From Deinococcales bacterium (GTDB lineage: Bacteria > Deinococcota > Deinococci > Deinococcales > JAAFIG01): a stretch of 15,436 nt of DNA. The position numbers and the translations under genes are program-made. The stretch spans positions 1 through 15,436 of the forward strand of contig JANNVX010000103.1 in NCBI GenBank assembly GCA_031414595.1, given 5' to 3'. The notes beneath the pieces are model-generated. The model worked only from the letters and a program-made list of their open reading frames with translations. It ran no database searches and was not told the origin of the DNA. Shown here in pieces: positions 1 through 15,436 of this stretch (its first letter is position 1; each line of letters opens with the position of its first letter).

Positions 1-480
1 GCAATGTCCAACAATTCCAAAGCGAAAACACATTAGCACTCGAGAATTACCAAGCAGCCCTCGAGTTATTCCGTGCAGTCGGCGATAAACTCGGCGAAGC
101 AAATACCCTACTAGCAATCGGCAATGTCCAACAATTCCGAAAAGAAAGCACATTAGCACTCGAGAATTACCAAGCAGCCCTCGAGTTATTCCGTGCAGTC
201 GGCGATAGACTCGGCGAAGCAAATACCCTAAAAGCAATCGGCAATGTCCAACAATTCCAAAGCGAAAACACATTAGCACTCGAGAATTACCAAGCAGCCC
301 TCGAGTTATTCCGTGCAGTCGGCGATAAACTCGGCGAAGCAAATACCCTACTAGCAATTGGAGATGTCCAACGATTCCGAAAAGAAAGCACATTAGCACT
401 CGAGAATTACCAAGCAGCCCTCGAGTTATTCCGTGCAGTCGGCGCTAGACTCGGCGAAGCAAATACCCTTGGCTCATTAG
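1..480 (+). repeat. Four tandem 120-bp coding repeats in A-B-A-B' order (240-bp higher-order period)
   Basis: Units 1-120, 121-240, 241-360, 361-480. Units 1 and 3 differ at one base; units 2 and 4 share ttccgaaaagaaagc and tagactc. Confidence 0.97.
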
Positions 481-725
481 CCCAAATGGGAATTTCAAAG
501 AATTTAGACCAATCCGAATTATGGCTTGAACAGGCTTTGAGCATCTGTCGTCAAATTGGGGACCGGTATGGCTTGGCTGCCCAGACAGGAAATTTTGGGA
601 TTGAACTAATAAACCTTAATCGTTTACCAGAAGCAAGACCATATTTACTCGAGGCAGCCAACTTATTTGAAGCCATAGGCTTAACCGACCATGCCAAACG
701 CCATCGGCAACTGGCAGAATCCTAG
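3..725 (+). CDS. Tetratricopeptide-repeat protein, C-terminal part (5' end outside window)
   Basis: Frame open from base 3 to TAG 723-725, in frame with track ORF 486..725. Encodes 40-aa TPR-like units (NVQQFQSENTLALENYQAALELFRAVGDKLGEANTLLAIG) followed by degenerate TPRs (LEQALSICRQIGDRYGLA, LLEAANLFEAIG). Confidence 0.9.
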   Translation, partial: NVQQFQSENTLALENYQAALELFRAVGDKLGEANTLLAIGNVQQFRKESTLALENYQAALELFRAVGDRLGEANTLKAIGNVQQFQSENTLALENYQAALELFRAVGDKLGEANTLLAIGDVQRFRKESTLALENYQAALELFRAVGARLGEANTLGSLAQMGISKNLDQSELWLEQALSICRQIGDRYGLAAQTGNFGIELINLNRLPEARPYLLEAANLFEAIGLTDHAKRHRQLAES

Positions 726-755
726 CAAGAAATAGCCCGAAAAATGGTGTCTCGA

Positions 756-884
756 GAGATTGCTGAGATTGAGATTGCTTCGCCTCGTTCTTGACCCCTA
801 CAGCAGCACCTACGGGCTTGGGTTGCTTCCTCGGCTCGCAATGACGAAGCCAAAGCCCTGTCATTGCGAGGCACGAAACAATCT
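756..884. repeat. REP-like palindromic element of the GAGATTGCTTCG...CTCGCAATGAC / GTCATTGCGAG...CAATCT type
   Basis: ctcgcaatgac (835-845) is the exact reverse complement of gtcattgcgag (860-870). agattgcttcg (772-782) pairs with cgaaacaatct (874-884) with one mismatch. Lies between convergent genes. Confidence 0.75.
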
Positions 885-955
885 AGCCCTTCCTGCACTG
901 CTATTTTGTACTTCGGGGTAGGTGCGGGGTATGCGCCGATGTGTGACTAACTGCT

Positions 956-1432
956 CTAAGCATCTCGAGTGGCAAAATCTTTAAGCACTTGGGCAATGGC
1001 TCGAGAAGCGTTCTTTTGGCTTTTGAGCCATTTGGTAATAATTTCCATATCCTCGAGCGGCGCAGTAATGCGAACTTGTTTGGTGCTGTGACCCAATGGT
1101 TTAGGTCCGGAATTGGGTCGTGCGCCGCCACGCGAAGGGTGCTTGGGATGCTCAGAATAATTTTTTTGCATTTTGAGCCAAATTTCGGCTCGGCGTGAAC
1201 CCAATCGTTCAAGGTGTTGGGCAATACTGGGGGTTACTTCGAGTTCACCACAAATCAATTGTGCGTATTGGGTTTGACTAATCTCGAGTTCCTGAGCTGC
1301 TTTTTTTGGATTTATTTTCAAGGCTTTTAAGTCTCTTTGAATTCCATAACCTGGTGGTAAGGCAATGAAGGGGATTAAATCCCCTTCTTCATAAACGGTA
1401 TATTCTTGATTTTTTATTTGCGTGGTGTACAT
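956..1432 (-). CDS. higA: HigA-family antitoxin (XRE HTH) with an extra C-terminal domain
   Basis: Directly downstream of higB with GGAGG RBS. HigA-like core: PPG..., AAQELEISQTQYAQLICGELEVTPSIAQHLER, AEIWLKMQKNY. Confidence 0.8.
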   Translation of the reverse strand: MYTTQIKNQEYTVYEEGDLIPFIALPPGYGIQRDLKALKINPKKAAQELEISQTQYAQLICGELEVTPSIAQHLERLGSRRAEIWLKMQKNYSEHPKHPSRGGARPNSGPKPLGHSTKQVRITAPLEDMEIITKWLKSQKNASRAIAQVLKDFATRDA

Positions 1433-1441
1433 TGTTACCTC

Positions 1442-1738
1442 CTAGTGGTAATCCACAATCTCGAGTATCAATATGATGTTGCCATCTTGGTCTTTTATAA
1501 TTTCAAAGCACAATCTAAACTGCTTATTCAGTCGCACGCTGTACTGTCCTTTACGCTTACCTTGTAGTCGTTCCATATGTAAACCTGGTGCTTTGTATAA
1601 ATCACGTTCATCTGTGGCTTGCTCCATCAATAGCACGGTATCAAAAAATGCTTGATAGACAGCAAGAGGAAATCTATGAGCTTTTTCTCCTTCAACCAGA
1701 AGTTCTCGAAGTTTATGGTCTTTGAAAACAACCTTCAC
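1442..1738 (-). CDS. higB: HigB / RelE-superfamily toxin (plasmid maintenance system killer type)
   Basis: MKVVFKDHKL start, LHMERLQGKRKGQYSVRLNKQFRLCF and terminal EIVDYH are typical HigB motifs; toxin-first order. Confidence 0.92.
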   Translation of the reverse strand: MKVVFKDHKLRELLVEGEKAHRFPLAVYQAFFDTVLLMEQATDERDLYKAPGLHMERLQGKRKGQYSVRLNKQFRLCFEIIKDQDGNIILILEIVDYH

Positions 1739-1744
1739 AATTAC

Positions 1745-1786
1745 ATTCTACTCAAGAATTTGAATTCTGTCAACGGCGTTCAAATT
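1745..1786 (-). promoter_or_regulatory. Sigma70-type promoter of higBA with overlapping inverted-repeat operator
   Basis: Minus strand: TTGACA (1773-1768), 17-nt spacer, TAGAAT (1750-1745), 6 nt, then GTG start. AATTTGAA (1757-1764) and TTCAAATT (1779-1786) form an inverted repeat around the -35. Confidence 0.85.
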
Positions 1787-1841
1787 TTATGGTCATTTAG
1801 CATATGGTCTTGCAAGTTCACAAAATGATAGTTTCTAGGAT

Positions 1842-4769
1842 ATGGATTCTTATACAGTTGGTCAAACCATCGGTGGCTACACCATCACTCGAGTCGAAGC
1901 CTATAAACAAGTCCAAGGCACATATCTCGAGTTACAACACCTTGCCACGGGCGCAAAGCACATGCACATTGCCTGTGCCGACGACAACAATGCCTTTACC
2001 GTAACCTTCCCAACCATTCCCCAAGATGATACCGGTGTGGCGCATATTTTAGAACATATCGTGCTGTGCGGTTCAGAAAAATTCCCAGTCCGAGACCCAT
2101 TTTTTAGCATGTTGCCACGCAGCCTAAACACCTTTATGAATGCCATGACCTCCTCGGCTTGGACAACCTACCCATTTAGTACCCGCAACCAAAAAGATTT
2201 TTTTAATCTGCTCGAGGTTTACTTGGATGCCACTTTTTTTCCTAAAATCTCCGAGGAAGCCTATAAACAAGAGGCTTGGCGTTTTGAATTTGCCGATGGT
2301 GCGAACCCTAGCACGCCGCTCGAGTACAAAGGGATTGTCTTTAACGAAATGAAAGGCGCAATGGCAAATGCTGGGGATCGGCTTCACCGTGCTTTGAGTG
2401 CTGCGATTTTTCCCGATATTACTTATGGCAATAACAGTGGTGGTGAACCAAGTGCGATTCCAAATTTAACTTGGCAAGACCTCAAGGATTTCCATGCCAC
2501 CCATTACCATCCAAGCAACAGTTATTTTTACACCTATGGCAATTTTGACCTTAAAAATACCTTAAAGATGATTGAAGATAATGTGTTATCGCGTTTTAGC
2601 AAACTCGAGAAAGACTGGTCTATTCCCAATCAACCGCGTTTTCTCAAGCCGCGTTACACCGAAATCAGTTATGCGATTGCCCCTACCGAAGCCAGTGCTA
2701 AAAAAGCCCAAGTGGTAATGGCATGGCTGACCGCGCCGATAACCGACGGTTTTTTATTGTTAAGCCTGCGAATTTTGCAACGGGTGCTGCTGGCTAATGC
2801 CTCGAGTCCTTTGCGCCGCGCCTTAATCGAATCGCAATTGGGCAGTGCTTTATCTGATTACACCGGCTTAAACGATGACCCTCGAGAAGCTATTTTTAGT
2901 GCTGGCTTAAAAGACGCTGACCTTGAAGACACCAAAAAAATCGAGCAGTTAATTCTGGGTACACTCGAGCAAATTGTGCAAAATGGTGTAGACCAAGAGG
3001 CAGTAGATGCCGCAATTCACCGTTTTGAAATCGAGGCTCGAGAAGTCAGCAATGCTGGTTTTCCATTTGCCTTTAAGCCCGGTTTTGATGCGATGGGTGC
3101 TTACTTGTACGGCGGTGATGCGTTTAGTGCTTTACAACTTGATGCTGACCTTGAAAAGCTGGCGGTGGTTCGAGCAAACGGGGCTTACTTTGAGAACTTA
3201 ATCAAAACCCAGCTACTCGAGAATTCGCATCGCGTGACCTTGGTCTTAAAACCAGACCCAGACCTGACAGCTCGAGAAGAGCTTGAGGAAAAAACTAAAT
3301 TAGAACAGATTAAAACGCAACTCTCCCCTACCCAAACAGCTCAAATTATTGCTGATGCAAAAAAACTCGAAGCCGACCAGAACAGCCAACAAAACTTTGA
3401 TTTGCTGCCAACCCTTGAACTGAGCGATGTCCCAATGAACTTTGAGGATGTACCGCACAGCTTGGAGACCATTCATGGCGCAACCGTTGGTATTTTCGCC
3501 CAACCGACCCAAGGTTTGACCTACCTTGATTACAACCTTGATTTTAGTGGTTTAAGTGCTTGGCATAAAGCCTTACTGCCATTTTTTGCTTTTGCAATTA
3601 CCAAAATGGGTGCGGGAAGCAGCAGCTACCTCGAGATGGCAAACCGCATTGAAGCACACACCGGCGGCATTAACGCAGGGATTGGATTTAGACGCGCTCC
3701 AAACGACCTAAACACTGTGCGTCAGAGCTTTGCTTTTAGTGTAAAAACCTTGCACCGTAATCTCGAGCCGACTTACGGCATCCTAAAGGATTTTCTTTGC
3801 AATACAGTCTTTGACCGCGCTCACTTAAAGAACTTGCTGGGCATGTACAAAGCCAGCCTTGACAACCGTTTAACCAGTGCTGGACACATGTACGCCGCAC
3901 GAATGGCAGAAGCCCAACTGTCTAATCTTGGCGCGTTACGTGAAACAATGGAAGGGATTACCCATGTGCGACTTGCCAGAGAACTGGCGACTCGAGACGA
4001 AGCAGGGCTGGATAATTTAATTGGGGAATTCAAAGAAATCATGACCGCGCTTTTTCGCGCCCCAAATGCCCGAATTTGCATCACCACCGATACCGAGCAA
4101 ATAGAAAACGTCAAAACCCAAATGACCGCGCTGTTGGCGGCTCTGCCAGCCCAAGCCCCAAACTCCTCAAGTGACCTGCCAGACTTGCACCCGCGTCAGG
4201 CTCGAGCCGTCAGTGTTGCCACGCCCGTCGCCTACGATGTGGCGCTGTTTACCACCGTGCCATTTACCCATGCGGATGCACCAAAGTTTATGGCGCTGTC
4301 TGAATACCTGCGTAACCGCTACTTACACAAAGAAATTCGTGAAAAAGGCGGCGCGTATGGTGGGTTTGCTGGCGCAAACCGCGAAGATGGCACATTTGCC
4401 TTGGTTTCATACCGTGACCCGCACATCAAACGCACTTTCGATGTCTTTGACGGGATTGCCGAATTTATGGCACAGCCTTTTGAAAAAGATGCGCTTAAAG
4501 AATCCATTTTGGCGGCTTGCGCCGACCTAGACCCACTTTCTAGCCCCGATACCAAAGGGCGCAGCCGCTTTTTTAACGACTTAAGTGGTTATACCCTAGA
4601 AGCTCGAGCTACTTTTAAGCAGCGCCTGCTCGAGACCAGCGAAGATGATTTACGCCGCATTGCTTTGGAGTATTTGCAGAATCCAAGCCGCGCAGTTGTC
4701 TCGAGCAAAGAAAAAATTGCGGAAGCCAATGCTTTAATGAATGAAATTTTTTCTAGCGAAGCGGTTTAG
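1842..4769 (+). CDS. M16C insulinase-family zinc metallopeptidase (presequence protease PreP/Cym1-like)
   Basis: 975 aa; inverted zinc motif HILEH in TGVAHILEHIVLCGSEKFPVRDPFF; NTFMNAMT; GIVFNEMKG; C-terminal IREKGGAYGG and SYRDP. Confidence 0.95.
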   Translation: MDSYTVGQTIGGYTITRVEAYKQVQGTYLELQHLATGAKHMHIACADDNNAFTVTFPTIPQDDTGVAHILEHIVLCGSEKFPVRDPFFSMLPRSLNTFMNAMTSSAWTTYPFSTRNQKDFFNLLEVYLDATFFPKISEEAYKQEAWRFEFADGANPSTPLEYKGIVFNEMKGAMANAGDRLHRALSAAIFPDITYGNNSGGEPSAIPNLTWQDLKDFHATHYHPSNSYFYTYGNFDLKNTLKMIEDNVLSRFSKLEKDWSIPNQPRFLKPRYTEISYAIAPTEASAKKAQVVMAWLTAPITDGFLLLSLRILQRVLLANASSPLRRALIESQLGSALSDYTGLNDDPREAIFSAGLKDADLEDTKKIEQLILGTLEQIVQNGVDQEAVDAAIHRFEIEAREVSNAGFPFAFKPGFDAMGAYLYGGDAFSALQLDADLEKLAVVRANGAYFENLIKTQLLENSHRVTLVLKPDPDLTAREELEEKTKLEQIKTQLSPTQTAQIIADAKKLEADQNSQQNFDLLPTLELSDVPMNFEDVPHSLETIHGATVGIFAQPTQGLTYLDYNLDFSGLSAWHKALLPFFAFAITKMGAGSSSYLEMANRIEAHTGGINAGIGFRRAPNDLNTVRQSFAFSVKTLHRNLEPTYGILKDFLCNTVFDRAHLKNLLGMYKASLDNRLTSAGHMYAARMAEAQLSNLGALRETMEGITHVRLARELATRDEAGLDNLIGEFKEIMTALFRAPNARICITTDTEQIENVKTQMTALLAALPAQAPNSSSDLPDLHPRQARAVSVATPVAYDVALFTTVPFTHADAPKFMALSEYLRNRYLHKEIREKGGAYGGFAGANREDGTFALVSYRDPHIKRTFDVFDGIAEFMAQPFEKDALKESILAACADLDPLSSPDTKGRSRFFNDLSGYTLEARATFKQRLLETSEDDLRRIALEYLQNPSRAVVSSKEKIAEANALMNEIFSSEAV

Positions 4770-4832
4770 AGAATAGGAATTTGCCTCGAGCAGTAGAAGA
4801 AGTGACATGAAAAAAAGTTGAAGGTTCTTGGC

Positions 4833-5492
4833 TTATTCTTCAAGCCACGGAAAACCATTGGGATTGGCTTCCACTTTTTTCCAGAGAATCTCGTTGTTGT
4901 GGGCGCGAATTGACTCGAGAAATGGAAAATCGGTTGGTTCAACTTGGACGCTAAAGAGTGGTTTGACAGGGTTTAGATTTGCCCAGTGGTGCGCTTGGTA
5001 CGAAACACCTTCACGTTCGTCTTTGGGTTGTTGCTTAAATCCTTGCTTGGGTAGCACATAAACCCTTCCAGTACGAAAAGGTTTTTGCTCGAGGGCTGTA
5101 TCTTGAACGCTAAAAAAGTAGATGTCTCGAGGCTGTGGCACTAAAATTTGTATCGCTGCGTTACTGATGCTCATGGGGATTTTTGGGCGGTCTAGGATTG
5201 CAAAAAACATTGCCCAAATACCGTCAGATGCCGCATAGACTGCGTTTTGATTGCCAAACCAATTGGCATCATCGGATTGTCTTGGTTCAAATTCTAGTAT
5301 GCTCGAGTCTCCTGTACCATGAACCAAGTAATTTTTATGGTGTGTCAGCCAGATTAAAAACGCCCATTTAGGAATCGAGGTTTTGGTTAAAAACCCCTGC
5401 TCGAGGGCTGAGCCAAAGGTCTGTTCTAAGGCTTCTTGGTTTTGGGAATAATCAAATTCTGGGCGTGTGAGCCAGTAACTGGGTAGGTTCAT
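4833..5492 (-). CDS. Hypothetical protein, possible ADP-ribosyltransferase-like fold
   Basis: Long ORF. Start placed at ATG 5492, 6 nt after TAGACT (5504-5499), rather than TTG 5498. Motifs LVHGT, AVYAAS, GRVYVL. Confidence 0.75.
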   Translation of the reverse strand: MNLPSYWLTRPEFDYSQNQEALEQTFGSALEQGFLTKTSIPKWAFLIWLTHHKNYLVHGTGDSSILEFEPRQSDDANWFGNQNAVYAASDGIWAMFFAILDRPKIPMSISNAAIQILVPQPRDIYFFSVQDTALEQKPFRTGRVYVLPKQGFKQQPKDEREGVSYQAHHWANLNPVKPLFSVQVEPTDFPFLESIRAHNNEILWKKVEANPNGFPWLEE

Positions 5493-5535
5493 GTTCAAAG
5501 TCTAGTGGTCTTCAATCACCAAAAGTTGTTTGTTT

Positions 5536-6189
5536 TCATGATTGTGGCGTAAATCCAAGATGCAGCGTGTAGGCTCGAGTGTGTTGTTGGGCTTGGCTAT
5601 TTTCTTCGAGTACCCTTGTCCATAATTGGTGCAGTTCGTTGTGCAGTTCCATCGCTTGTTGGGTACTGAGATGAATCGTTGTCCATGAATTCCAAAGTGG
5701 TTTGAGATTGTTTTGTTCGATTTCGATGTTGGGTGGTGGTGTGGCAGAAAAATCTATGCTGTGGCGGTTACTAGAAAGCGCTCGAATACACATTCCGCCT
5801 TGGCTGGCATTAGGTTGTATTAGTTGTCCAGTTCGTACAAAATCAATGCAGTATTGCTCGAGCAGTGGGGTTTGTAAGGACAGCATCATGGCTGTTAGAT
5901 TTTCTTCTTTGGTGCTGGCAAATGGAATAAAAAATTGGTCTGTGACCGCTTGAAAGTATTTGATTGGCTTGCCTTGGCGTGGTTGGGTTCGGGTTTCAAT
6001 AACCAAACCCCATTTGATGAATTTTTCTAAGTGGTATTTGAGGCTCGAGACGGGTTGATTCAGGATTTTAGCGGCTTTAGATAAACTTTGTTCTTGGAAA
6101 AAAATGGCAAAACTCTTAAGTGTTTCTGGGTCGAGCAAGGCTTGGGCGGCTTCGGCGTGGTTCACGTAATGCCAGTCTTTTTGGGTCAT
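5536..6189 (-). CDS. Winged-HTH (ArsR-like) transcriptional regulator
   Basis: ALLDPETL...SLSKAAKILNQPVSSLKYHLEKFIKWGLV...RQGKPIKYFQA is a wHTH with wing; C-terminal LSTQQAMELHNELHQL...YTLHLGFTP. Confidence 0.8.
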   Translation of the reverse strand: MTQKDWHYVNHAEAAQALLDPETLKSFAIFFQEQSLSKAAKILNQPVSSLKYHLEKFIKWGLVIETRTQPRQGKPIKYFQAVTDQFFIPFASTKEENLTAMMLSLQTPLLEQYCIDFVRTGQLIQPNASQGGMCIRALSSNRHSIDFSATPPPNIEIEQNNLKPLWNSWTTIHLSTQQAMELHNELHQLWTRVLEENSQAQQHTRAYTLHLGFTPQS

Positions 6190-6239
6190 GGGGCAGACTA
6201 TACGCTTTTATACCGACTTTTTAGGTGTAAAATCTAGGC
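6190..6239. promoter_or_regulatory. Back-to-back leaderless-type -10 boxes
   Basis: Minus: TATAGT (6202-6197) + 7 nt + ATG 6189. Plus: TAAAAT (6228-6233) + 6 nt + ATG 6240. No Shine-Dalgarno on either side. Confidence 0.7.
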
Positions 6240-6566
6240 ATGGATTTTTCTGAGGCTGTGCAAAAAATTGCGGTGGCACTTAATCCACAACAAATTATTT
6301 TGTTTGGCTCGAGAGCGCGGGGGGATTTTAGAGCCGATTCTGATTATGATTTGTTGATTGTGGTGGATGATAAAGATGAAAGTCGGTGTTTTGAATTGGC
6401 AGGTAAAGCCCATAGTGTTGTTCGTGGCAAAGATTTAGCTTTGGATGTGATTGTGTATCCTAAGTCCGAATTTGAATTCAGTTTGCGTGAACAACATGAC
6501 GTTGTTTGTTATGCAATGGATGATGGGAAGGTTTTGTATGCGCGAAGCGACACGGCGTTGGCTTGA
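6240..6566 (+). CDS. Minimal nucleotidyltransferase (MNT) antitoxin
   Basis: 108 aa; IILFGSRARGDFRADSDYDLLIVV (GS...DxD) and LDVIVY. Confidence 0.92.
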   Translation: MDFSEAVQKIAVALNPQQIILFGSRARGDFRADSDYDLLIVVDDKDESRCFELAGKAHSVVRGKDLALDVIVYPKSEFEFSLREQHDVVCYAMDDGKVLYARSDTALA

Positions 6567-6912
6567 TCGAGCCGAAGAAGACTTAAAATTACTTTCGGTG
6601 TCCAGTGTTTCTGAAACTCCAAACGCGTCTGGTGTGTTGTGTCAACAAGCAGTTGAGAAAATGCTCAAAGCCTGTTGGGTGGAACTTGGTCGTCGTCCAC
6701 CAATGACCCATTTACTCGAGGATTTGTTTTTGGGAGTAAAAGATCAACTTGGTTTTGAACTGAACGAAGATTTTCTTGAGCAACTGACTCCTTTTGGTAC
6801 TGAGGCTCGTTATCCAGCACGGCGTATCTCACCTATTCAAGCGTTATGGGCAGCCGAATTTGCTTTGGAGACTTGTACAACCTTAAAATTATGGCTCGAG
6901 TCGCGTGAATAG
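6538..6912 (+). CDS. HEPN domain protein (MNT-HEPN toxin partner)
   Basis: ATG 6538 overlaps the MNT end. WLDRAEEDL, CQQAVEKMLKA, RRPPMTHLL and ARYP match the HEPN pattern. Confidence 0.88.
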   Translation: MREATRRWLDRAEEDLKLLSVSSVSETPNASGVLCQQAVEKMLKACWVELGRRPPMTHLLEDLFLGVKDQLGFELNEDFLEQLTPFGTEARYPARRISPIQALWAAEFALETCTTLKLWLESRE

Positions 6913-7780
6913 TGCCGAGCGCCTTGGTTTAGCCGGTGCGTTGGCAGCCGTGACCTCGTGGGGCGCAAATTCGGTAATTCTAAAGTTCCTCACAGGGCAG
7001 ATGAGTGTTGAACTCTTAAACGCCTCGAGAATTCTGATTGCCAGTGTCTTTTTTATGGTTATTTTTGTCTACTTGCGCCGTGGCAAGGGTTTTCCTAAGC
7101 TCGAGGCTCGGGACTGGTTGGCGATTGCAGCACTTGGGTTTATCGGAACAAGTCTGTATCAACTGCTTTTTGCCAACGGAATCAAATTAAGTAATGCCAG
7201 CATTACAGCCCTCATCTCGAGTACCAACCCGATTTGGGTCGGGATTCTTGGGGCGTTTTTAGGGCTAGGGTTCACCCGTTGGCAATTTATTGGTGTGCCA
7301 GTCACGATGCTTGGCGTGGGTTTACTTTCGTACTCGAGTATTGTTGGTGCAAGTGTGCAACCGCTTGGGGTGGTGCTTTTAATTGCCTCAAATATGTGTT
7401 GGTCGGTCTATACAGTTTTGTCTCGAGGCTTGATGCAAAAAATCAATCCACTTGAGTTCACCTGTCTTAGTTTTGTACTTGGTGGTCTGCCTTTTGTGCT
7501 TTTGACTGTTCCAGCTTGGTCTGAAGCATCAGTTATCTCGAGTACAACTTGGCTTTGGCTGATTCTATCCGCCCTGATTGCCCAAGTGATTGGTTTTATG
7601 GGCTGGTTTCTTGGCACACAAGCCCTTGGTGCAGCAAGGGTCAGTGTCTTTTTGAACATCACGCCGCTTGTGGGTGTGGCGTTGGCGGCTGGTTTTCTTG
7701 GTGAAAAAATCACGCTCGAGAAAGTCTTGGCGGGTTTAATTATTTTGTTTGGTGTCTGGTTAGCCAATAAAAAATCATAG
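6905..7780 (+). CDS. EamA / DMT family transporter
   Basis: 291 aa, about 10 hydrophobic segments in two halves; SWGANSV, ALGAARVSVFLNITPLVGVALAAGFLGEKIT. GTG start overlaps the HEPN stop. Confidence 0.92.
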   Translation: MNSAERLGLAGALAAVTSWGANSVILKFLTGQMSVELLNASRILIASVFFMVIFVYLRRGKGFPKLEARDWLAIAALGFIGTSLYQLLFANGIKLSNASITALISSTNPIWVGILGAFLGLGFTRWQFIGVPVTMLGVGLLSYSSIVGASVQPLGVVLLIASNMCWSVYTVLSRGLMQKINPLEFTCLSFVLGGLPFVLLTVPAWSEASVISSTTWLWLILSALIAQVIGFMGWFLGTQALGAARVSVFLNITPLVGVALAAGFLGEKITLEKVLAGLIILFGVWLANKKS

Positions 7781-9592
7781 CCATTTGGCAAAATACTCGA
7801 GCTTGGCTGTCCAGTTGCGAATTTTTGCATTTAGGTCGGCTGTACCATGTCCATCATCAAAAATCATTATCTCAAAATCTTGTCCTTCTATTTTGCCGTT
7901 CTCGAGCAGTTTAGCCACAAAATTCTCGGCTTGGTTGAGTGGGCAGCGTGGGTCGTTGCGTCCGTGCAGAATCAGCATTTTGGCACTTAATTGTTGAGCA
8001 TAATGAATCGCGCTGCGTTCGCGCCACAAGGCTTGGTTGGTGTCTGGGTCGCCCATCATGGAGCGAAAGTAATAGGCAAGAGCGGGGAGTAACTCGAGGT
8101 TGTCTTTGTAAAGTTGCTCGAGGTCAGTGATGCCAATTTCGGGTATCGCCACTTTGAACAGTTCGGGGCGTTTGGTGCTTGCGATATAGGTCATGTATCC
8201 ACCAAATGAACCGCCAGTAATCGCAATTCGGTCTGGGTTTACAAAGTCTTGGCGCTGTAAATATTTTGCGCCGTAAGCCACATCTTCAAGGTCTTTTCCA
8301 CCCCAGTCGTTTAGATTTGCGTCGCGCCATACAGTGCCGTAACCCGTGCTACCGCGAATGTTGGGTTGCAGTACCACATAGCCTTGGTCGGCAAGCACTT
8401 GGGCATCGGGGTCAAAGGTATAGCGAAATTGTGAGGTCGGTCCACCGTGAATATCCATGATGGCTGGAAATTGCTGTTCTGAACTGGCTTCTCGAGGTTT
8501 ATACAAGAATGCCGAGACCATCTGCCCGTCAAAACTTGGGTAGTTTATCAATTCGAGTTGCACAAAATCACTTGGCTCGAGGTCGCCATAATCGGCGGCT
8601 AAGATGGTTTGGTAAGTGTCGGTCTCGAGGTCATACAGCACAAATTCTTCGCGTCTAGTGGGCGTTTGAAGACTGACCAAGACTTTGGTCTCTGATACCC
8701 ACTCGCCGCCGTATGCCACGCCTTTAGGAATGTACAGGACTCGAGGCTCGAGTGTACTGGTGTGGTACAAAATCGGCTGCATGGCAGCTTGATAATCGCG
8801 CAGTGCCAGTAGCCAAGTGCCGTTTGGAGAGAATTTTTGGATGTATTCGGCTGTGCCAATCTGTTCGGGGCTGAGCCAAGTTGTGATTCTCGAGTTCAGG
8901 TCAAATAAGCCAATGCGGTGTTCTCCGCTCGAGTCGCTGGCTACGGCTAATTGGCTACAATTCGGGTGAATATCGCCGATTCGGTCAAATGCGCCATCTC
9001 TAATGCTCCAAACCCGCTCTAAGTGACTGCCATCGGTCTGGATGGTGTAGCCGTCCAAGTTGCGTTTTAGGGTGCTTTGGTTGCTGTCAAAGGTGATAAA
9101 TTTTCCATTGCTCGAGACGGCTGTCAAAAAAGCTGGGGCTTCAAAATAAGTCAGTTGCTGCCACGTTTTATTTTCTAAGTTCATGGTGTAAATCTGGGAT
9201 TGTCCAGATTGGGTACTCGAGAAAAACAGGGTTTGACCATCTGGACTGATTTTTTGTGGCATTTCTTGGCTTTTTGGGTTGTCGGTCAGTTGTTGCCAAA
9301 CCCTTGTCTCGAGATGACAAGACCATAAATTATGCTGCTCGTTGCCTGCGTTATCCAGTCCTAGAATAATGGTTGCATTATCTTGCCAGACAACATTGGT
9401 TCGTGGGGTGGCTGGCAGTTGACCATCTGAAATTTGGGTATTTTGCAGCGTGGATAATTCGAGCAGCCAAAGCTCAAAACGCCCAGAGCGGTTACTAAAA
9501 TAAACCATCTGCTGTTTATTGATTGAAAGGAACATCCCAAAAGAAACATGAAGCCGAATCATTGCCTCGAGTGACAACCTTGGTTTTGACAT
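7775..9592 (-). CDS. S9 family (prolyl oligopeptidase / acylaminoacyl) peptidase
   Basis: N-terminal propeller repeats (ISPDGQ, FSPNG); IHGGP, NIRGSTGYG, nucleophile GGSFGG, Asp in HGRNDPRC, His in DDGHG. TATACT 5 nt before the ATG. Confidence 0.95.
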   Translation of the reverse strand: MSKPRLSLEAMIRLHVSFGMFLSINKQQMVYFSNRSGRFELWLLELSTLQNTQISDGQLPATPRTNVVWQDNATIILGLDNAGNEQHNLWSCHLETRVWQQLTDNPKSQEMPQKISPDGQTLFFSSTQSGQSQIYTMNLENKTWQQLTYFEAPAFLTAVSSNGKFITFDSNQSTLKRNLDGYTIQTDGSHLERVWSIRDGAFDRIGDIHPNCSQLAVASDSSGEHRIGLFDLNSRITTWLSPEQIGTAEYIQKFSPNGTWLLALRDYQAAMQPILYHTSTLEPRVLYIPKGVAYGGEWVSETKVLVSLQTPTRREEFVLYDLETDTYQTILAADYGDLEPSDFVQLELINYPSFDGQMVSAFLYKPREASSEQQFPAIMDIHGGPTSQFRYTFDPDAQVLADQGYVVLQPNIRGSTGYGTVWRDANLNDWGGKDLEDVAYGAKYLQRQDFVNPDRIAITGGSFGGYMTYIASTKRPELFKVAIPEIGITDLEQLYKDNLELLPALAYYFRSMMGDPDTNQALWRERSAIHYAQQLSAKMLILHGRNDPRCPLNQAENFVAKLLENGKIEGQDFEIMIFDDGHGTADLNAKIRNWTAKLEYFAKWL

Positions 9593-9697
9593 AGGGCAGT
9601 ATAAATCATAATTTTATATCGAATTTACTCATGTAAACTGCTCTAAAATGAGCTTTACCCGTTGGGTGTTTCATCAAAACTCGAGTAGCCTAAGTCC

Positions 9698-10597
9698 ATG
9701 AATGCCTTAGAAATTGTTTTGGACGGCTTAATGCAGCGTTACCAATCTCGAGTGCCAGATGTTGAAAAAGTGATTGCCGCAATGGTGCAAGAAAAACTCA
9801 TCTCGAGTGCCGCAGACATCGAAAATGACCATATTGCTTTTCGGACAATGGGTGTACCGCAATTGGGTATGAAATCTTTTGAAAAGATTTTTTTGCATTA
9901 CGGCTATGAACGCCGTGAAGCCTACCGTTTCGCCCATAAAAAACTCGATGCTTTTTGGTACAGCCCTCCAGACCCAAAGTATCCTAGAATTTTTGTCTCC
10001 GAGTTGCGGGTGGCTGACCTCAGTCTCGAGGCTCGAGAGATTATTACTTCTTACACCAATCAAATCCCGACCGACCCCGTGGACAACTTAGATTTAGACA
10101 ATGGTCTCGAGATGGATGCTTTTCTGCACAGCCCCTTGTGGCAACTCCCGACTTTAGCGCATTACGAAGCACTCCAAGCCGAATCTGAATACGCCGCATG
10201 GGTGATTTACAACCGCTATTACCTCAATCATTTCACGGTTTCGGTGCATAACTTGCCTACACCGCAAAACACCTGTCTTGGCTTTAACGAATTTTTGAAA
10301 GCACATGGTTTTAAGCTCAATAACGCTGGTGGTGAAATCAAACAAAGCCCTGACGGGTTCTTGCTCCAATCCAGTACGGTTGCCGAAATGATTGATGTAG
10401 AGTTTCCCTGCGGTGAGACCAAACGAATCTCGGGGTCATATGTCGAATTTGCCGAACGCCGAGTCTTACCGCAATTTGCCCATCTCGAGCCAAGCCAAAT
10501 AAACCGCCAACATCGCCGTGAAGGTTTTGAGGCTGGAAATGCTGATAAAATTTTTGAGAGTACCTTTACCACCCAAACGGCGCAAAGAAGTTCCTAG
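9698..10597 (+). CDS. DUF1338 family protein, likely 2-oxoadipate dioxygenase/decarboxylase (HglS-like)
   Basis: NDHIAFRT, PRIFVSEL, ESEYAAW, NHFTVSV, LLQSST, SYVEFAER, GFEAGNADKIFEST; candidate Fe ligands H, H, E present. Confidence 0.85.
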   Translation: MNALEIVLDGLMQRYQSRVPDVEKVIAAMVQEKLISSAADIENDHIAFRTMGVPQLGMKSFEKIFLHYGYERREAYRFAHKKLDAFWYSPPDPKYPRIFVSELRVADLSLEAREIITSYTNQIPTDPVDNLDLDNGLEMDAFLHSPLWQLPTLAHYEALQAESEYAAWVIYNRYYLNHFTVSVHNLPTPQNTCLGFNEFLKAHGFKLNNAGGEIKQSPDGFLLQSSTVAEMIDVEFPCGETKRISGSYVEFAERRVLPQFAHLEPSQINRQHRREGFEAGNADKIFESTFTTQTAQRSS

Positions 10598-10688
10598 CTC
10601 CTAGCTTCTGGTTATTAGCCAAAACCATGTCATAGATGAAATTTTTGCACACGCTGTAAAGTGAATAATAACGAAATCCCAATCAACC

Positions 10689-10715
10689 GTAGGGGCAGAC
10701 CCCCGTGTCTGCCCT
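10689..10715 (+). repeat. GTAG-type REP hairpin
   Basis: GTAG (10689-92), stem gggcagac (10693-10700), loop ccccgt, stem gtctgccc (10707-14). Confidence 0.7.
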
Positions 10716-10763
10716 GACCAAGCCAAAGCCTCGAGCCAAGGCACAACCCAAAAGGACAAAATC

Positions 10764-12320
10764 ATGAAAACCTATTCAAACATTATCGGTGGTCAAGCAG
10801 TCTCGAGCCAAAAAACCTTTCTTTCGCGTAACTCGAGTAACTTATCGGACATTCTTGGTGAATTCCCAGAATCTAGTCTCGAGCAGGTACGGGATGCCTG
10901 TATCGCGGCTAAAAAAGGCTTTGAAGTTTGGCGTAAAACCCCAGCCCCAATTCGTGGACAGATTATTGGCAATATCGGTAAAGCCATCGAACGTGAAAAA
11001 GAGGCTTTGTCGCAACTACTCTCGAGAGAAATGGGCAAGACCTTAAAAGAGGCACGCGGCGATGTTCAAGAAGCCATAGACACTTGTCATTTTTTTCAGT
11101 CCGAGGGTCGCAGGCTTTACGGGCAAACTGTGCCATCCGAGATGCACAACAAAGAACTCAGCACCTACCGCCGTCCGCTTGGTGTGGTCGGTGTGATTAC
11201 AGCCGGGAATTTTCCTGTGGCAGTGCCATCTTGGAAAATTATTCCAGCCTTGGTCACGGGGAACAGCATTGTCTGGAAGCCTTCGGAGGATGCTGCCGCA
11301 ACTTCGTATGCTTTTGCCAAACTGCTCGAGGAGGGCGGTCTGCCCGATGGTGTGCTGAATGTGGTTTTTGGTGGCGGGGCTGGAGCGGCTGGCGAGTTCT
11401 TGGTCGGCATGATGGACGAAAAACGCCTCAATAAAATTGCCTTTACAGGCAGCACCGCCGTTGGTCGTAAAATCGGTGAGGTGGCTGGGCGTAACTTAAC
11501 GCACCCGACCCTCGAGTTGGGCGGCAAGAACCCAATGATTGTGATGCGCGATGCTGACCTTGACAATGCCGTGGCTGGGGCGCTTTGGGCAGCCTTCGGC
11601 ACGGGTGGGCAGCGCTGCACCAGCCTCGGCAACTTAATTTTGGATGAACCAATTCATGATGCCTTTATCGAAAAGTTCCTCGAGAAAGTCAAATCTATTA
11701 AAATTGGCGACCCGATTCTGCACGAGGATGTCTTGTACGGACCATTTATCAATGAGCGTTTCTATGCTGCTTGGGATGCCCATTACGATATGGCGCAAAG
11801 CGACGGTGCAACACTGCTACATGGCTCGAGAAGAATTACCGATGCGAACAAAGAAAACTTTATTGGCGACCCCAGCACTGGCTTTTTTGGTTCGCCGACT
11901 GTCTGGGCGGGTGTGACCAAAGAAATGAAAATCTTCCAAACCGAGGTTTTTGGTCCTACCGTCAGCATTGTGAAAGTCAACGGCATAGATGAAGCCATTG
12001 AAACCGCCAACAGCGTAGATTATGGTCTCTCGAGTGCAATTTACACCAATAACCGCATGTGGGCATACCAATTTAAGGACACCATCCAAGCCGGTATGAG
12101 CAGCATCAACAACAGCACGACGGGTGCAGAGGCACACATGCCATTTGGTGGGGTCAAAGGCTCAGGCAATGGCACACGCGAATCGGGGATTTGGGTGATT
12201 GAAAGCTACACCTACTGGCATGGAGTCAACGATGAACTCTCGGGCAAGTTGCAACTGGCGCAGATGGATACCGAATATGGTCAGGTCAAACAGGCTTTTG
12301 AAGTCTCGAGCTTGATGTAA
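10764..12320 (+). CDS. NAD(P)-dependent aldehyde dehydrogenase, probably aminoadipate-semialdehyde/P6C type
   Basis: ITAGNFP, WKPSE, FTGST, LELGGKN, GQRCT (catalytic Cys), EVFGP, PFGGVKGSG; AAAGGA RBS. Substrate inferred from the DUF1338 neighbour. Confidence 0.92.
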   Translation: MKTYSNIIGGQAVSSQKTFLSRNSSNLSDILGEFPESSLEQVRDACIAAKKGFEVWRKTPAPIRGQIIGNIGKAIEREKEALSQLLSREMGKTLKEARGDVQEAIDTCHFFQSEGRRLYGQTVPSEMHNKELSTYRRPLGVVGVITAGNFPVAVPSWKIIPALVTGNSIVWKPSEDAAATSYAFAKLLEEGGLPDGVLNVVFGGGAGAAGEFLVGMMDEKRLNKIAFTGSTAVGRKIGEVAGRNLTHPTLELGGKNPMIVMRDADLDNAVAGALWAAFGTGGQRCTSLGNLILDEPIHDAFIEKFLEKVKSIKIGDPILHEDVLYGPFINERFYAAWDAHYDMAQSDGATLLHGSRRITDANKENFIGDPSTGFFGSPTVWAGVTKEMKIFQTEVFGPTVSIVKVNGIDEAIETANSVDYGLSSAIYTNNRMWAYQFKDTIQAGMSSINNSTTGAEAHMPFGGVKGSGNGTRESGIWVIESYTYWHGVNDELSGKLQLAQMDTEYGQVKQAFEVSSLM

Positions 12321-12337
12321 GATTAGGTTTTTATCTT

Positions 12338-12365
12338 AGGCAGCCCTTTTCGGGCTGCCTTTTTT
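12338..12365 (+). terminator. Intrinsic terminator after the ALDH gene
   Basis: aggcagccc-ttttc-gggctgcct 9-bp stem followed by a T run. Confidence 0.9.
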
Positions 12366-12495
12366 GATTTTGTAGTGCAATCCCTCACATGGCTACTGAG
12401 AAGATGATATTCTGCTGATAAGGAGCAATCCCAAAAGTTATGCAAAGTATCCCTTTCAGCCGTTTGGCTGTGAAAAATTCCCCAAAGGAGCCATC

Positions 12496-14214
12496 ATGGA
12501 TCAATTACTTATTGGTCTGCTTTTTGGCATTCTTGTCGGGGCTGGAGTCATTTACGCCGTTCTCAATGCGAATTTCAAGCGCACCCTCGAGACTCGGAGC
12601 AATGCTGACACGGAAATTCGTGAAGCCGCGCAACGTGAAGCCGAAACCATCCGACGTGAAGCCGAAGCAGTTAAATTACAAGCCACCTCGCTTAAAGCCC
12701 AAGCTGAGTCTGATGCAGTGCGAATTAAACAAGAAGTTGAATTACGCGCTCGAGACGAAGCATTGGCATTTCAGAACAAGCTAGAATCAGAACTTAGAAC
12801 TAAATTTGAACTCGAGTCTACTCGAGAGCGCGAAATCATTAAAGCAGACCGCGAAACGATTAAAGCAGATCGTGACGGCTTAAAATCCGAACGTGACGGA
12901 CTGCGTTCCGAACGTGAAGAACTCAGGCTTGAATCCGAGCGCTTATCGAGACGCGGCGAGCAAATGGATACCCGCGCCAGTAAACTCGATCAACTCGAAG
13001 AAACCCTCCATGCCGATAAGAAACGCACCAGCGAATTACAAACAAGTTTAGAACAAAAAATCCATGAATCTGAGTTAAAACTCTACGAAGTCGCCCAACT
13101 GACCCGCGAAGCCGCCGCCAAGCAAATTTTAGAAAAACTAGACGACGAACTCGAGGAAGAAAAAGTGGTGCGGATTCGCACGATGATGAACCGCGTCAAT
13201 TTGGATGTCAAACGCCAAACCCAGAGCATTATTGCCCAAGCAATTCAACGCAGCGCCTCGGAAACCACGGCTCAGATTAGTGTCAGCGTCGTGCCGATTC
13301 CGTCGGATGCGATGAAAGGCAGAATTATCGGACGTGAAGGACGCAATATCAGAGCTTTTGAGGCTTTAACGGGCGTTGACCTGATTATTGATGACACGCC
13401 AGAAGCCGTGATTTTAAGCAGCTTTAACCCAATTCGCCGTGAAGTTGCGGTCAAAGCCCTCGAGCAGTTGGTTGGCGACGGACGAATTCACCCAACCCGC
13501 ATCGAAGAAGTGGTGCAAAAAGCCCAAGACGAAATGAAAACCTATATTCTCGAGCGTGGCGAAGAAGCCGCCATCGAAGCCAATGTGGTTGGCTTAAAAC
13601 CTGGACTACTACAACTGATGGGCAGAATGCACTTTCGCACCAGTTATGCCCAGAATGTTTTGAAACACAGCATTCAAGTCGCCCACCTGACTGGTATTAT
13701 GGCAGCCGAACTTGGCTTAGATGCGGTCTTGGCACGTCGGGCTGGACTGCTGCACGACATTGGCAAAAGCATAGACCGTGAAATCGAAGGCACTCACGTA
13801 GACATTGGCATTACCCTCGCCAAGCGCTTTGGCGAACCATTTGAAGTGATTGATGCAATTGCCCACCACCACGACCCAGAAAACGGTGAAACAGTCTACA
13901 GTGTGCTGGCGGCGGCTGCCGATGCGATTAGCGCTGCCCGCCCCGGCGCGAGGCGCGAGGACTTAGAAACCTACGTTAAACGCTTGCAGCAACTCGAGAC
14001 GATAGCGGTTTCTTTTCCCGGTGTGGAAAATGCCTTTGCGATTCAAGCCGGACGCGAAGTGCGGGTGATTGTTCAGCCCGATAAGGTATCCGACAGCAAA
14101 GCCACGATGTTAGCTCGAGAAATTGCTACCCGCATTGAGCAAGACATGGAATACCCCGGGCAGGTGCAAGTGACTGTGGTACGCGAAATGCGTTCAGTCG
14201 AATACGCAAGGTAA
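12496..14214 (+). CDS. rny: Ribonuclease Y
   Basis: N-terminal TM helix, long coiled coil, KH domain ([14 protein letters not shown]), HD domain ([24 protein letters not shown]), C-terminal [22 protein letters not shown]. Confidence 0.97.
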
Positions 14215-14227
14215 AACAATTATTTCT

Positions 14228-14257
14228 AAAGTCCTCGAGCGGCCGCTCGAGGACTTT
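14228..14257. terminator. Perfect 30-bp palindrome, probable bidirectional terminator
   Basis: AAAGTCCTCGAGCGGCCGCTCGAGGACTTT between convergent rny and XRE genes, with short T runs on both strands. Confidence 0.8.
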
Positions 14258-14263
14258 TAAGTT

Positions 14264-14641
14264 TTATCGCCTAAACGTCGTTCCTAAAGTTGCTCCATCT
14301 TCTCTTGAAATCAGCGTAACTTGAACATCAAAACCAAGGGCGTTTGCCACTTCGGTAATGCTTTTTAACTCGAGATTCTGGGCTTTTTCCAAGGTACTAA
14401 TTCGCCCGTGGGTTGTGCCGAGGCTACGCGCCAATTCACGTTTACCAATATCACGGGTTTTACGGGCATCCTCGAGTAACGCCCCGATTTTAGATTCCAT
14501 GTAACCTTGTTCAACCATCTCGAGTAAATCCCGAGGGTCTTCTTCTGGGATGTTGACAGGGGTTTTAGGGATGATAATGTCATCTCGCAACTTAAGAACT
14601 CTTTGTAGAGCAGCTTTTCTAGCTTCAACATTTTTTCTCAT
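14264..14641 (-). CDS. XRE-family HTH protein
   Basis: Start placed at ATG 14641 after AGGAGG. IGALLEDARKTRDIGKRELARSLGTTHGRISTLEKAQNLELKSITEVANALG is an HTH_3 pattern. Confidence 0.85.
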   Translation of the reverse strand: MRKNVEARKAALQRVLKLRDDIIIPKTPVNIPEEDPRDLLEMVEQGYMESKIGALLEDARKTRDIGKRELARSLGTTHGRISTLEKAQNLELKSITEVANALGFDVQVTLISREDGATLGTTFRR

Positions 14642-14697
14642 TTTGTTTAACCTCCTGCAATCCAACTAAGCTACAATTTTTATTGGTCGAGAGAAGG

Positions 14698-14994
14698 TCA
14701 ACCATCTAACTTCTCAACTGTCTCAACAACATATTTCACGTCAGGTTCGGAATCTGGGTTCAACCAAGCCCGAAAGACCAGTTCTGGAGAAAAGTAATTC
14801 CGATTTTGCATGAAGACATTGACCGCAGAATCAAAGTCGGGGTTTGCTAAACCGATAGATAAAGTATGTTCTGTTTGGACAGTGGTACTATTATCTGGTA
14901 AATAATGCCCCCAAGAACGACCACATTTACAGAAACGACGTTCCGAAAAAAGCCGAACAATATCGTTACAATGACCACAAAATAATAGTTTCAT
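14698..14994 (-). CDS. Small hypothetical protein with CxxC...CxC (possible zinc binding)
   Basis: AGGAG RBS; MKLLFCGHCNDIV...RFCKCGRSWG. Confidence 0.7.
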   Translation of the reverse strand: MKLLFCGHCNDIVRLFSERRFCKCGRSWGHYLPDNSTTVQTEHTLSIGLANPDFDSAVNVFMQNRNYFSPELVFRAWLNPDSEPDVKYVVETVEKLDG

Positions 14995-15080
14995 ACGCTC
15001 CTACACTTCACTTTTCGTAAAACAAATCAAGCAAAACCAGCCTACCATAGTCAATATCTGAGTGGTATATTTGTGGTCAG

Positions 15081-15311
15081 ATGCAATCACTACTTCCACC
15101 ATTCTTCTCAAAAATATCCAGTGCTAAACGAGTTTTACTGGCTGGGGCTGGTGGCGGCTTTGACATTTATTGTGGATTGCCTTTGTACTTTGCGCTGCGA
15201 GAAGCTGGCAAAGAAGTTTTTCTGGCTAATCTTTCGTTTTCAATGTTGGATACTGTGCCGAGCATCACCACTGGTTTACATGAAGTTAAACCCACATCAT
15301 ACCAACTTTAG
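15081..15311 (+). pseudogene. 5' fragment of a DUF1152-like gene truncated by an IS insertion
   Basis: RVLLAGAGGGFDIYCGLPLYFALREAGKEVFLANLSFS resembles the N-terminus of the roughly 300-aa DUF1152 family. The frame stops after 76 aa, inside the putative IS end. Confidence 0.75.
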
Positions 15312-15436
15312 GTAGATAATAAGGAATGTCAAGATTAGGCACACCTCTAACCGCCCACCATACGACTGAAGAACTCGAGAAACACTACAAACAGTGCAAA
15401 GATGCCAAAGAAAAAACTCGTCGCCAAGTGATATGG
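15300..15436 (+). mobile_element. Left end of an IS630-family insertion sequence (partial)
   Basis: Begins at a TA (TACCAACTTT..., 15300), followed 26 nt later by a transposase-like ORF. The right end is outside the window, so the boundary is inferred. Confidence 0.7.
15326..15436 (+). CDS. IS630-family transposase, N-terminal part (runs off window; not in ORF track)
   Basis: MSRLGTPLTAHHTTEELEKHYKQCKDAKEKTRRQVIW resembles the H..EEL...Y....D..E..R.Q.IW start of IS630 transposases. Confidence 0.75.
   Translation, partial: MSRLGTPLTAHHTTEELEKHYKQCKDAKEKTRRQVIW

Follow-up and report, generated by a model that had tools for sequence, protein, structure and literature searches.

CTCGAG is hyper-abundant throughout an uncultured family of Deinococcales and is very probably a highly iterated palindrome

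The window analyzed here is one whole contig of 15,436 nucleotides (JANNVX010000103.1; G+C content 46.8%) from an uncultured Deinococcales bacterium. The palindromic hexamer CTCGAG occurs 100 times in this window (6.5 per kb). The first copy starts at position 39 and the last at 15374, so that the sites, which have no strand, span positions 39–15379. In 200 dinucleotide-preserving shuffles of the window, the mean number of copies was 2.19 and the largest was 7, and none of the 200 reached 100. A preliminary description of this DNA, made from its letters alone, had put the number at about 100, far above expectation, and the exact count agrees. Words that differ from CTCGAG by one letter are rare in the window, as that description also held, with 0–5 copies each (ATCGAG 5, TTCGAG 5, GTCGAG 2).

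Ten open reading frames (ORFs) in the window hold 85 of the 100 sites, distributed as 49, 17 and 19 over the three codon frames, and 15 sites lie outside them. The TPR-repeat ORF (3–725, plus strand), whose 5' end is open, contains nine sites. Eight of these lie in tandem repeats, two per 120-bp unit, at 39/60, 159/180, 279/300 and 399/420 (repeat stretch 39–425). An intergenic copy without strand is located at 751–756, and copies of the same kind start at 4785, 9680 and 10730. The M16C/PreP peptidase gene (1842–4769, plus strand), characterized by its ORF, site list and orthologue site map, carries 18 sites in all three frames, encoding for example Leu-Glu at 1926 (frame 0), Thr-Arg-Val at 1888 (frame 1) and Ala-Ser-Ser at 2801 (frame 2). 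CTCGAG encodes 9 of the 19 Leu-Glu dipeptides in this gene. Two adjacent minus-strand ORFs of 221 and 217 amino acids, at 4833–5498 (five sites) and 5536–6189 (three sites), have no Pfam match. The EamA transporter gene (6905–7780, plus strand; ORF, site list and orthologue alignment) contains seven sites. The S9 prolyl-oligopeptidase-family gene (7775–9592, minus strand) contains 15, including one pair 7 bp apart (8740/8747). Six sites are found in the HGLS gene (2-oxoadipate dioxygenase/decarboxylase family; 9698–10597, plus strand) and ten in the aldehyde dehydrogenase gene (10764–12320, plus strand), both supported by an ORF and an orthologue alignment.

The RNase Y gene (12496–14214, plus strand) has nine sites and was used for a 15-genome turnover tree and a comparison with 65 outgroup orthologues. 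Directly past it, the sequence reads as a 30-bp perfect palindrome followed by a T run (14228–14257, no strand), which is terminator-like and bears one CTCGAG in each arm (14234 and 14246). The center of this palindrome is GCGGCCGC, despite the near-ban on GGCC in the genome (152 copies). An HTH-domain ORF (14264–14665, minus strand; ORF and site list) with three sites follows. All of the specific placements given in the preliminary description were recovered: the three reading frames, the half share of Leu-Glu in the M16 peptidase, the eight sites in the TPR repeats and the six sites between ORFs. It had seen no causal gene in this DNA, and Pfam annotation of the window ORFs likewise reveals none for the CTCGAG excess.

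The source genome (G000) is a 4.49-Mb assembly of 120 contigs with a G+C content of 47.2%. It contains 23,235 copies of CTCGAG (5.18 per kb), which ranks first among all hexamers at about three times the second, and the next six hexamers in rank are its own overlapping neighbors. The observed-to-expected ratio (O/E) of CTCGAG under Markov models is 23.9 at order 0, 43.6 at order 1, 18.1 at order 2, 3.8 at order 3 and 1.16 at order 4. The low value at order 4 arises because the sub-words of the motif themselves carry the excess. Furthermore, 69% of the 33,474 TCGA tetramers in the genome sit within CTCGAG.

One explanation of such numbers is that the motif is an artefact of codon usage, dipeptide frequency or base composition, for instance one left over from a GC-rich ancestor that favored CTC for Leu and GAG for Glu. 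The frame distribution lends it some appeal. Among crude gene calls (3,275 non-overlapping ORFs of at least 150 amino acids, 3.77 Mb), 19,374 coding sites were counted, and 11,570 of them are in frame 0, where the word encodes Leu-Glu. High-GC Thermus-sized genomes also reach about 0.6–1.6 copies per kb without any excess over the reversed word. The remaining 7,804 coding sites, however, lie in frames 1 and 2 (3,749 and 4,055), and shuffling codons does not reproduce the count. When synonymous codons were shuffled within genes, which keeps both protein and codon usage, only 1,814–1,912 sites remained, leaving an approximately 10-fold excess, and shuffling of codon order gave 842–935. In 200 runs of the same synonymous shuffle on the window ORFs, the number of sites averaged 8.7 and never exceeded 16, versus the 85 observed. 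The excess therefore survives the codon-shuffled nulls that the preliminary description had proposed as a test.

The non-coding DNA tells the same story. Because uncalled DNA may hide small genes, the recount was limited to gaps of 20–200 bp between adjacent called genes. These short gaps contain 545 sites in 97.7 kb (5.58 per kb), compared with 15.9 expected. The density is 7.5 per kb in convergent (3'-3') gaps and 4.0 per kb in divergent gaps. Genome-wide, 56 of 574 close pairs of non-coding sites have at least 3 bp of additional complementarity. The tRNA genes contain 7 copies in 5,310 bases, whereas 27.5 would be expected at the genome density and, by estimate, about 1 from composition. 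Five of the seven CTCGAG-bearing tRNA genes (Ser, Ser, Cys, Thr and Glu) belong to a single cluster on contig C56. Two 16S rRNA primer patterns had no match in the assembly. On the shuffle nulls of window and genome and on the intergenic density we reject a codon or dipeptide artefact, which we consider very improbable.

Dispersal by repeats or mobile elements, or an error of assembly or binning, is another conceivable source, and the eight window sites in the tandem TPR repeats do show the word within a repeat. Copies of a mobile element would share sequence around the core. In contrast, base frequencies from -12 to +12 around the sites are all between 0.17 and 0.30, with only a mild deficit of C at -1/-2 and of G at +1/+2. 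The flanks, described at the outset as unconstrained, are thus nearly so, and dispersed repeats, miniature inverted-repeat transposable elements (MITEs) and repetitive extragenic palindromic (REP) elements were rejected for want of any conserved sequence beyond the core word. Nor is the motif confined to a single contig, a restriction that would have undone the original claim; it occurs on all 120 contigs at 2.3–8.6 per kb. An assembly artefact is contradicted by the presence of the same trait in 18 independent assemblies, one of them a single contig. We give this explanation almost no weight.

The excess is also visible in the encoded proteins. Leu-Glu is the most over-represented dipeptide in the source genome (19,215 versus 8,650 expected), a 2.2-fold inflation, whereas Glu-Leu is at expectation (8,458), which again does not fit a composition artefact. 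CTCGAG encodes 60% of Leu-Glu dipeptides. Among tripeptides compatible with the motif, it accounts for 46% of [STPA]-Arg-[VADEG] and 37% of x-Ser-[SR]. In RNase Y, 14 family sequences were compared with the 65 outgroup orthologues. The family proteins contain on average 12.3 Leu-Glu (6.0 expected) and the outgroup proteins 8.8 (6.4 expected). At one alignment column, Arg-Glu in 53 of 65 outgroups corresponds to Leu-Glu in 12 of 14 family members, and at another, Tyr-Glu, His-Ala or His-Thr corresponds to Leu-Glu in all 14. An Arg-Glu that is invariant in 65 of 65 outgroups is Leu-Glu in one family member. The force toward CTCGAG is strong enough to replace amino acids.

CTCGAG excess is a lineage-wide trait of the uncultured family to which the source genome belongs. 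All 18 other family genomes, from five genera, have about 4.3–6.8 copies per kb, and the reversed word GAGCTC is close to absent from them (0–568 copies). The single-contig family genome (G013) has a G+C content of 59.0% in a 200-kb sample, in which CTCGAG is the first-ranked hexamer at 4.73 per kb and 5.2 times the synonymous shuffle, with a Leu-Glu O/E of 2.04. The G+C content of the family is thus spread widely, from 47% in G000 to 59% in the G013 sample, at similar motif density, and the trait is therefore independent of base composition.

A total of 150 high-quality genomes outside the family were also compared. Genus g7, with genome sizes like those of Deinococcus, has only 26–1,010 copies per genome. 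Genera g13, g22 and g23 have roughly 1.4–3.4 per kb, and one genome of family f2 (g21) about 2.4 per kb. In samples of three Meiothermus/Calidithermus-like genomes (G042, G103 and G130), CTCGAG ranks first at 2.5–3.3 per kb and 3.0–3.9 times the shuffle, with 2.2–3.1 per kb in non-coding DNA and a Leu-Glu O/E of 1.5–1.6. A sample from family f2 (G019) gave 1.9 times the shuffle. In loci with organism titles, the density is 2.60 per kb in Meiothermus, 2.90 per kb in Calidithermus roseus, 1.65 per kb in Trueperaceae metagenome-assembled genomes (MAGs), 1.05 per kb in Thermus thalpophilus and 0.08 per kb in Deinococcus (all 30 titled loci). A weaker but real form of the trait is thus present in Meiothermus/Calidithermus-like genomes, and Deinococcus nearly avoids the word.

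To follow the sites over time, codon alignments were made for six window genes, each with 4–15 of the 19 family genomes (RNase Y 15, aldehyde dehydrogenase 7, M16 6, S9 4, HGLS 8, EamA 6); matches covering less than 70% of the query were dropped. At 60–70% nucleotide identity, 318 of 797 CTCGAG sites are retained (39.9%), versus 11.4% for control hexamers. The corresponding values are 880 of 1,771 (49.7%) versus 18.7% at 70–76% identity, 64.6% versus 27.7% at 76–84%, and 562 of 651 (86.3%) versus 55.4% at 84–95%. CTCGAG sites are kept approximately 2–3.5 times better than control hexamers. Sites are gained as well. Where one genome of a pair has a Leu-Glu written without the motif, its partner has CTCGAG in 25–46% of cases at identities below 95% (four bins), and in 0 of 18 cases in the single pair above 95%.

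A tree of RNase Y was made with the motif columns taken out. On this tree, 28 site columns require at least 58 changes, and 14 columns require two or more. Nine columns have the site in one genome only, and these are spread over six genomes in all five genera. Such ongoing gains in terminal branches are a further difficulty for a relic of ancestral codon preference. The convergent gains among orthologues for which the preliminary description had proposed a test are seen in these columns and in the Leu-Glu gains. The motif is retained preferentially and arises again and again, and is therefore no relic.

Gaps of more than 2 kb without CTCGAG are found 11 times in the source genome, compared with 0.7 expected. 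Ten of these gaps were retrieved and have an internal G+C content of 32–44%. Their genes encode glycosyltransferase, flippase, clostripain-family peptidase, DUF2326, NOV_C and PNP-domain proteins, which are accessory or defence-like. These islands are recently imported AT-rich DNA that lacks CTCGAG.

Collectively, CTCGAG is very probably a highly iterated palindrome (HIP), maintained by a continuing, sequence-specific force on DNA that drives the exact hexamer into every kind of sequence, with gain and loss in balance. The codon-preserving shuffles and the intergenic density back the DNA-level, HIP1-like character first suspected from the window. The word has the descriptive marks of a HIP, namely its abundance, its presence in all frames and in non-coding DNA, its bland flanks and its conservation across genomes. 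HIP1 of cyanobacteria (GCGATCGC) and the alternate HIPs, including the hexamer GGCGCC of Calothrix PCC 7103, are likewise exact, GC-rich, hyper-abundant palindromes. HIP1 is over-represented 15- to 300-fold (Xu, Lawrence and Durand, 2018; PMC5861425), a range that accommodates the 24-fold (order 0) and 44-fold (order 1) excess of CTCGAG. Both words occur in genes in all frames and between genes, are conserved above control words, are lineage-wide with graded exceptions and are scarce in imported DNA. CTCGAG differs in belonging to Deinococcota, in being another word, a hexamer at about 5 per kb, and in coexisting with extreme avoidance of about half of the other palindromic hexamers. Full-text searches of the literature yielded no prior report of CTCGAG hyper-abundance in Deinococcota, with a scope that did not extend to supplementary tables (e.g., of Elhai, 2015) or large methylome surveys.

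What maintains the motif is less certain. The account of Elhai (2015; PMC4390886) ties HIPs to cognate methylases and proposes methylation-dependent repair. Applied here, a methyltransferase would mark CTCGAG or its TCGA core, and methylation-dependent mismatch correction would turn near-misses into the motif and guard existing copies. CTCGAG is a classical restriction-modification palindrome, and most TCGA tetramers lie within it. The genome is otherwise shaped by such systems, with palindrome avoidance and more than 20 methylase-family matches (Eco57I 9, C5 5, N4/N6 9, Dam-class 1 and N6_Mtase 10, in families that overlap). The one-off variants keep the TCGA core somewhat more than the outer letters, resembling the HIP1 pattern in the same account (PMC4390886). 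The summed O/E of these variants is about 0.87 for changes at positions 1/6, 0.63 at 2/5 and 0.59 at 3/4, a bias that is weak and confounded by avoidance of other words.

Palindrome avoidance in this genome is extreme, which fits its many methylase-family matches. The O/E is below 0.1 for 33 of the 64 palindromic hexamers (GGGCCC 0 copies, TGCGCA 2, CGATCG 3, GAGCTC 6), and GAGCTC has 0 copies in the window. There are 152 copies of GGCC, RTCGAY words are nearly missing (237 in all), and the O/E of GATC is 0.14.

The gene content argues against a methylase. Methylase loci were compared among the source genome, G006, G010, G011 and G013, with G012 added for PF00145, PF01555 and PF07669, and all ORFs at these loci were clustered at 35% identity or more. 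No methylase orthogroup is common to all of the genomes compared (six for these three families, five for PF02086 and PF02384), a result that covers five known families, in which five of the six genomes are MAGs of 87–94% completeness and non-orthologous enzymes may share a specificity. The conserved orphan methylase that accompanies a HIP is thus not found for CTCGAG in these Deinococcales genomes, and the conserved orphan methylases of HIP1, DmtA and DmtC as presented in PMC13756078, have no counterpart found here. A C5 methylase match is absent from G010, and a PF01555 match from the closed genome G013. The methylases of G013 share only 26–33% identity with those of G000, while the flanking genes are 70–89% identical.

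Two stand-alone TaqI/PaeR7I-class methylases with Eco57I and TaqI_C domains were identified in the source genome (L081:286-1965 and L083:721-2712). The XhoI and PaeR7I systems recognize the same word, CTCGAG, and these two adenine methylases are of the TaqI class. The targets of such systems, however, are normally avoided rather than enriched, and the methylases here are strain-variable. Each was found in 2 of the 12 family genomes searched, with one L081 match only 31% identical, and both were rejected as the cause; no methylase of this class was found in all of the family genomes searched. The best solved-structure matches of the L081 protein are adenine-specific DNA methyltransferases, including the BseCI methylase, and are silent on specificity. 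NCBIfam gives no specificity-level name for the candidate methylases or their neighbors. The XhoI nuclease family (PF04555) has no match in the source genome, a search that is uninformative since the controls also gave none.

Very-short-patch repair by Dcm and Vsr enriches CCWGG in Escherichia coli. There, repair acting on DNA makes the target word of a methylase over-abundant, but CTCGAG shows an effect more than 10 times as strong. None of five family genomes yielded Vsr in a search that was positive in three control genomes including E. coli. A repair drive acting on a single position predicts a depleted neighbor word, and no class is specifically depleted. The transition one-off words are the commonest, with 2,674 (TTCGAG/CTCGAA), 1,930 and 2,325 (CTTGAG/CTCAAG) copies and an O/E of 1.1–1.3, whereas the transversion classes have an O/E of 0.18–0.72. 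With no Vsr and no universal C5 methylase found, and no depletion of the words that deamination to T:G would produce, a Vsr-type drive was rejected. The orphan XhoI/PaeR7I-type methylase with biased repair that the preliminary description had favored thus did not hold up. Methylase-linked repair in general is an unlikely explanation, and it is further weakened by the arrangement of the sites, since site-autonomous repair does not predict regular spacing.

For the spacing analysis, the null redistributed occupancy at random over every peptide context in which the motif can be encoded. Gaps shorter than 20 bp number 728, compared with 1,762 under this null, and gaps shorter than 50 bp number 3,661, compared with 5,072. 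Gaps of 50–200 bp are in excess (11,611 versus 10,285). Gaps of 400 bp or more are fewer (2,412 versus 2,809), and only the very longest, the islands, exceed the null. At distances below 25 bp the pair correlation stands at 0.45, and past 75 bp it is flat near 1.05. Up to 600 bp, the sole periodicity is the 3-bp codon signal, with no sign of helical or longer phasing. A chromosome-scale periodicity of 10–90 kb has been reported for HIP1; the distances covered here, in a 120-contig assembly, extend to 600 bp. The regular spacing makes the benefit look per region rather than per site. It suggests models of uptake or recombination, or of protein binding, which it fits better than autonomous repair of each site. 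DNA uptake and a nucleoid protein were the other options that the preliminary description had named.

Selection on the organism for a binding site is one such model. For HIP1, selection and a role in nucleoid structure have been argued (Xu, Lawrence and Durand, 2018; PMC5861425). Here, dense and even coverage with sites for a nucleoid-associated or repair/recombination protein would be useful in itself. Conservation above background is consistent with this, as are the similar density (4.3–6.8 per kb) across genomes of 47–59% GC, the exclusion zone below about 50–75 bp, the shortage of long gaps relative to the null, and a palindrome that suits a dimeric protein. However, with 23,000 sites, the selective value of a single one should be tiny, and still conserved residues are displaced. 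There is also no phasing within 600 bp, and no candidate protein was found. We regard a selected binding site as improbable, on a par with methylase-linked repair.

The reading that we place first is preferential uptake and/or recombination of motif-bearing kin DNA, a "self watermark", to which we assign a probability of roughly 0.35. A putative palindrome-recognizing protein would mediate the preferential uptake or recombination. Each of the approximately 23,000 sites can count for only a little in the cell, and any benefit appears to lie with the region, so that a molecular drive is the most likely engine, ahead of site-by-site selection or repair. An uptake watermark has also been proposed for HIP1, recently linked to transformation (Rodriguez-Cruz et al., PMC13756078).

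CTCGAG has several traits of uptake sequences: it is over-abundant in the core genome, scarce in DNA of foreign origin and more evenly spaced than chance would have it. The DNA uptake sequence (DUS) of Neisseria and the uptake signal sequence (USS) of Pasteurellaceae are asymmetric words of 9–12 nt at about 1 per kb. Like them, CTCGAG is a short word in genome-wide and family-wide excess that enters coding DNA at a protein cost, is concentrated toward the 3' ends of genes and in terminator hairpins, is evenly spaced and is lacking in foreign islands. Its host phylum is known for natural transformation, and both Deinococcus and Thermus are naturally transformable. More specifically, but only tentatively, CTCGAG may be a methylase-independent palindromic self watermark of Deinococcales, driven to saturation by a putative CTCGAG-recognizing uptake, recombination or repair protein. 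The effect of such a system would vary by lineage, from strong in the low-GC uncultured family through moderate in Meiothermus/Calidithermus to absent in Thermus and reversed in Deinococcus.

A number of points weigh against the uptake or recombination drive. Its support comes from the genomic pattern, and none of the evidence is direct. The shape of the word is not that of a DUS or USS: it is a symmetric hexamer at 5 per kb with bland flanks, and in this respect it seems closer to what a dimeric protein of the restriction-modification type would target. ComEC is present in the family, but it is also present in 10 of 14 control genomes; it is nearly universal and therefore discriminates nothing. 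DNA uptake by Thermus, the transformable relative that has been studied best, has no known specificity, and the Thermus-sized genomes (g9) show no specific excess, with 1,455–2,803 copies of CTCGAG, close to the count of the reversed control word. The short-range exclusion could stem from the cost of close inverted repeats. The genome pairs behind the retention statistics are not independent, recombination or errors in the single RNase Y gene tree may account for part of the homoplasy seen on it, and the gene calls (ORFs of at least 150 amino acids) are crude.

HIP1 has been unexplained for three decades and is treated as a cyanobacterial peculiarity. An independent case in another phylum provides a second test system that bears on methylation-linked repair, nucleoid structure and the uptake watermark. 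This case offers a measurable protein cost, a gradient from near-avoidance to saturation within one order, and no conserved methylase found. Were the self-watermark reading true, this would be the first system of the HIP or uptake-sequence type beyond cyanobacteria and the uptake-sequence families of proteobacteria, and the densest known. The moderate form in cultivable Meiothermus/Calidithermus-like relatives makes it open to experiment. In addition, motif density marks imported DNA in these genomes, and the motif distorts codon-pair and dipeptide statistics, which is relevant to gene prediction, binning and studies of horizontal transfer in this lineage.

Other repeated sequences were noticed in the window. 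The intergenic repeats at 783–832 (approximately 38 bp) and 10665–10727 (approximately 28 bp) are found at 14 and 12 places in the source genome, respectively, and several other family genomes carry them at 88–97% identity. Both look REP- or MITE-like, and a hairpin lies within the second. The last approximately 140 bases of the window (15296–15436), which hold one CTCGAG (15374), have copies of 97–100% identity on 18 contigs of the source genome including this one, mostly at contig ends, and are also matched at about 91% identity in the family genome G003. This stretch probably represents one end of an insertion sequence whose multiple copies fragment the assembly.

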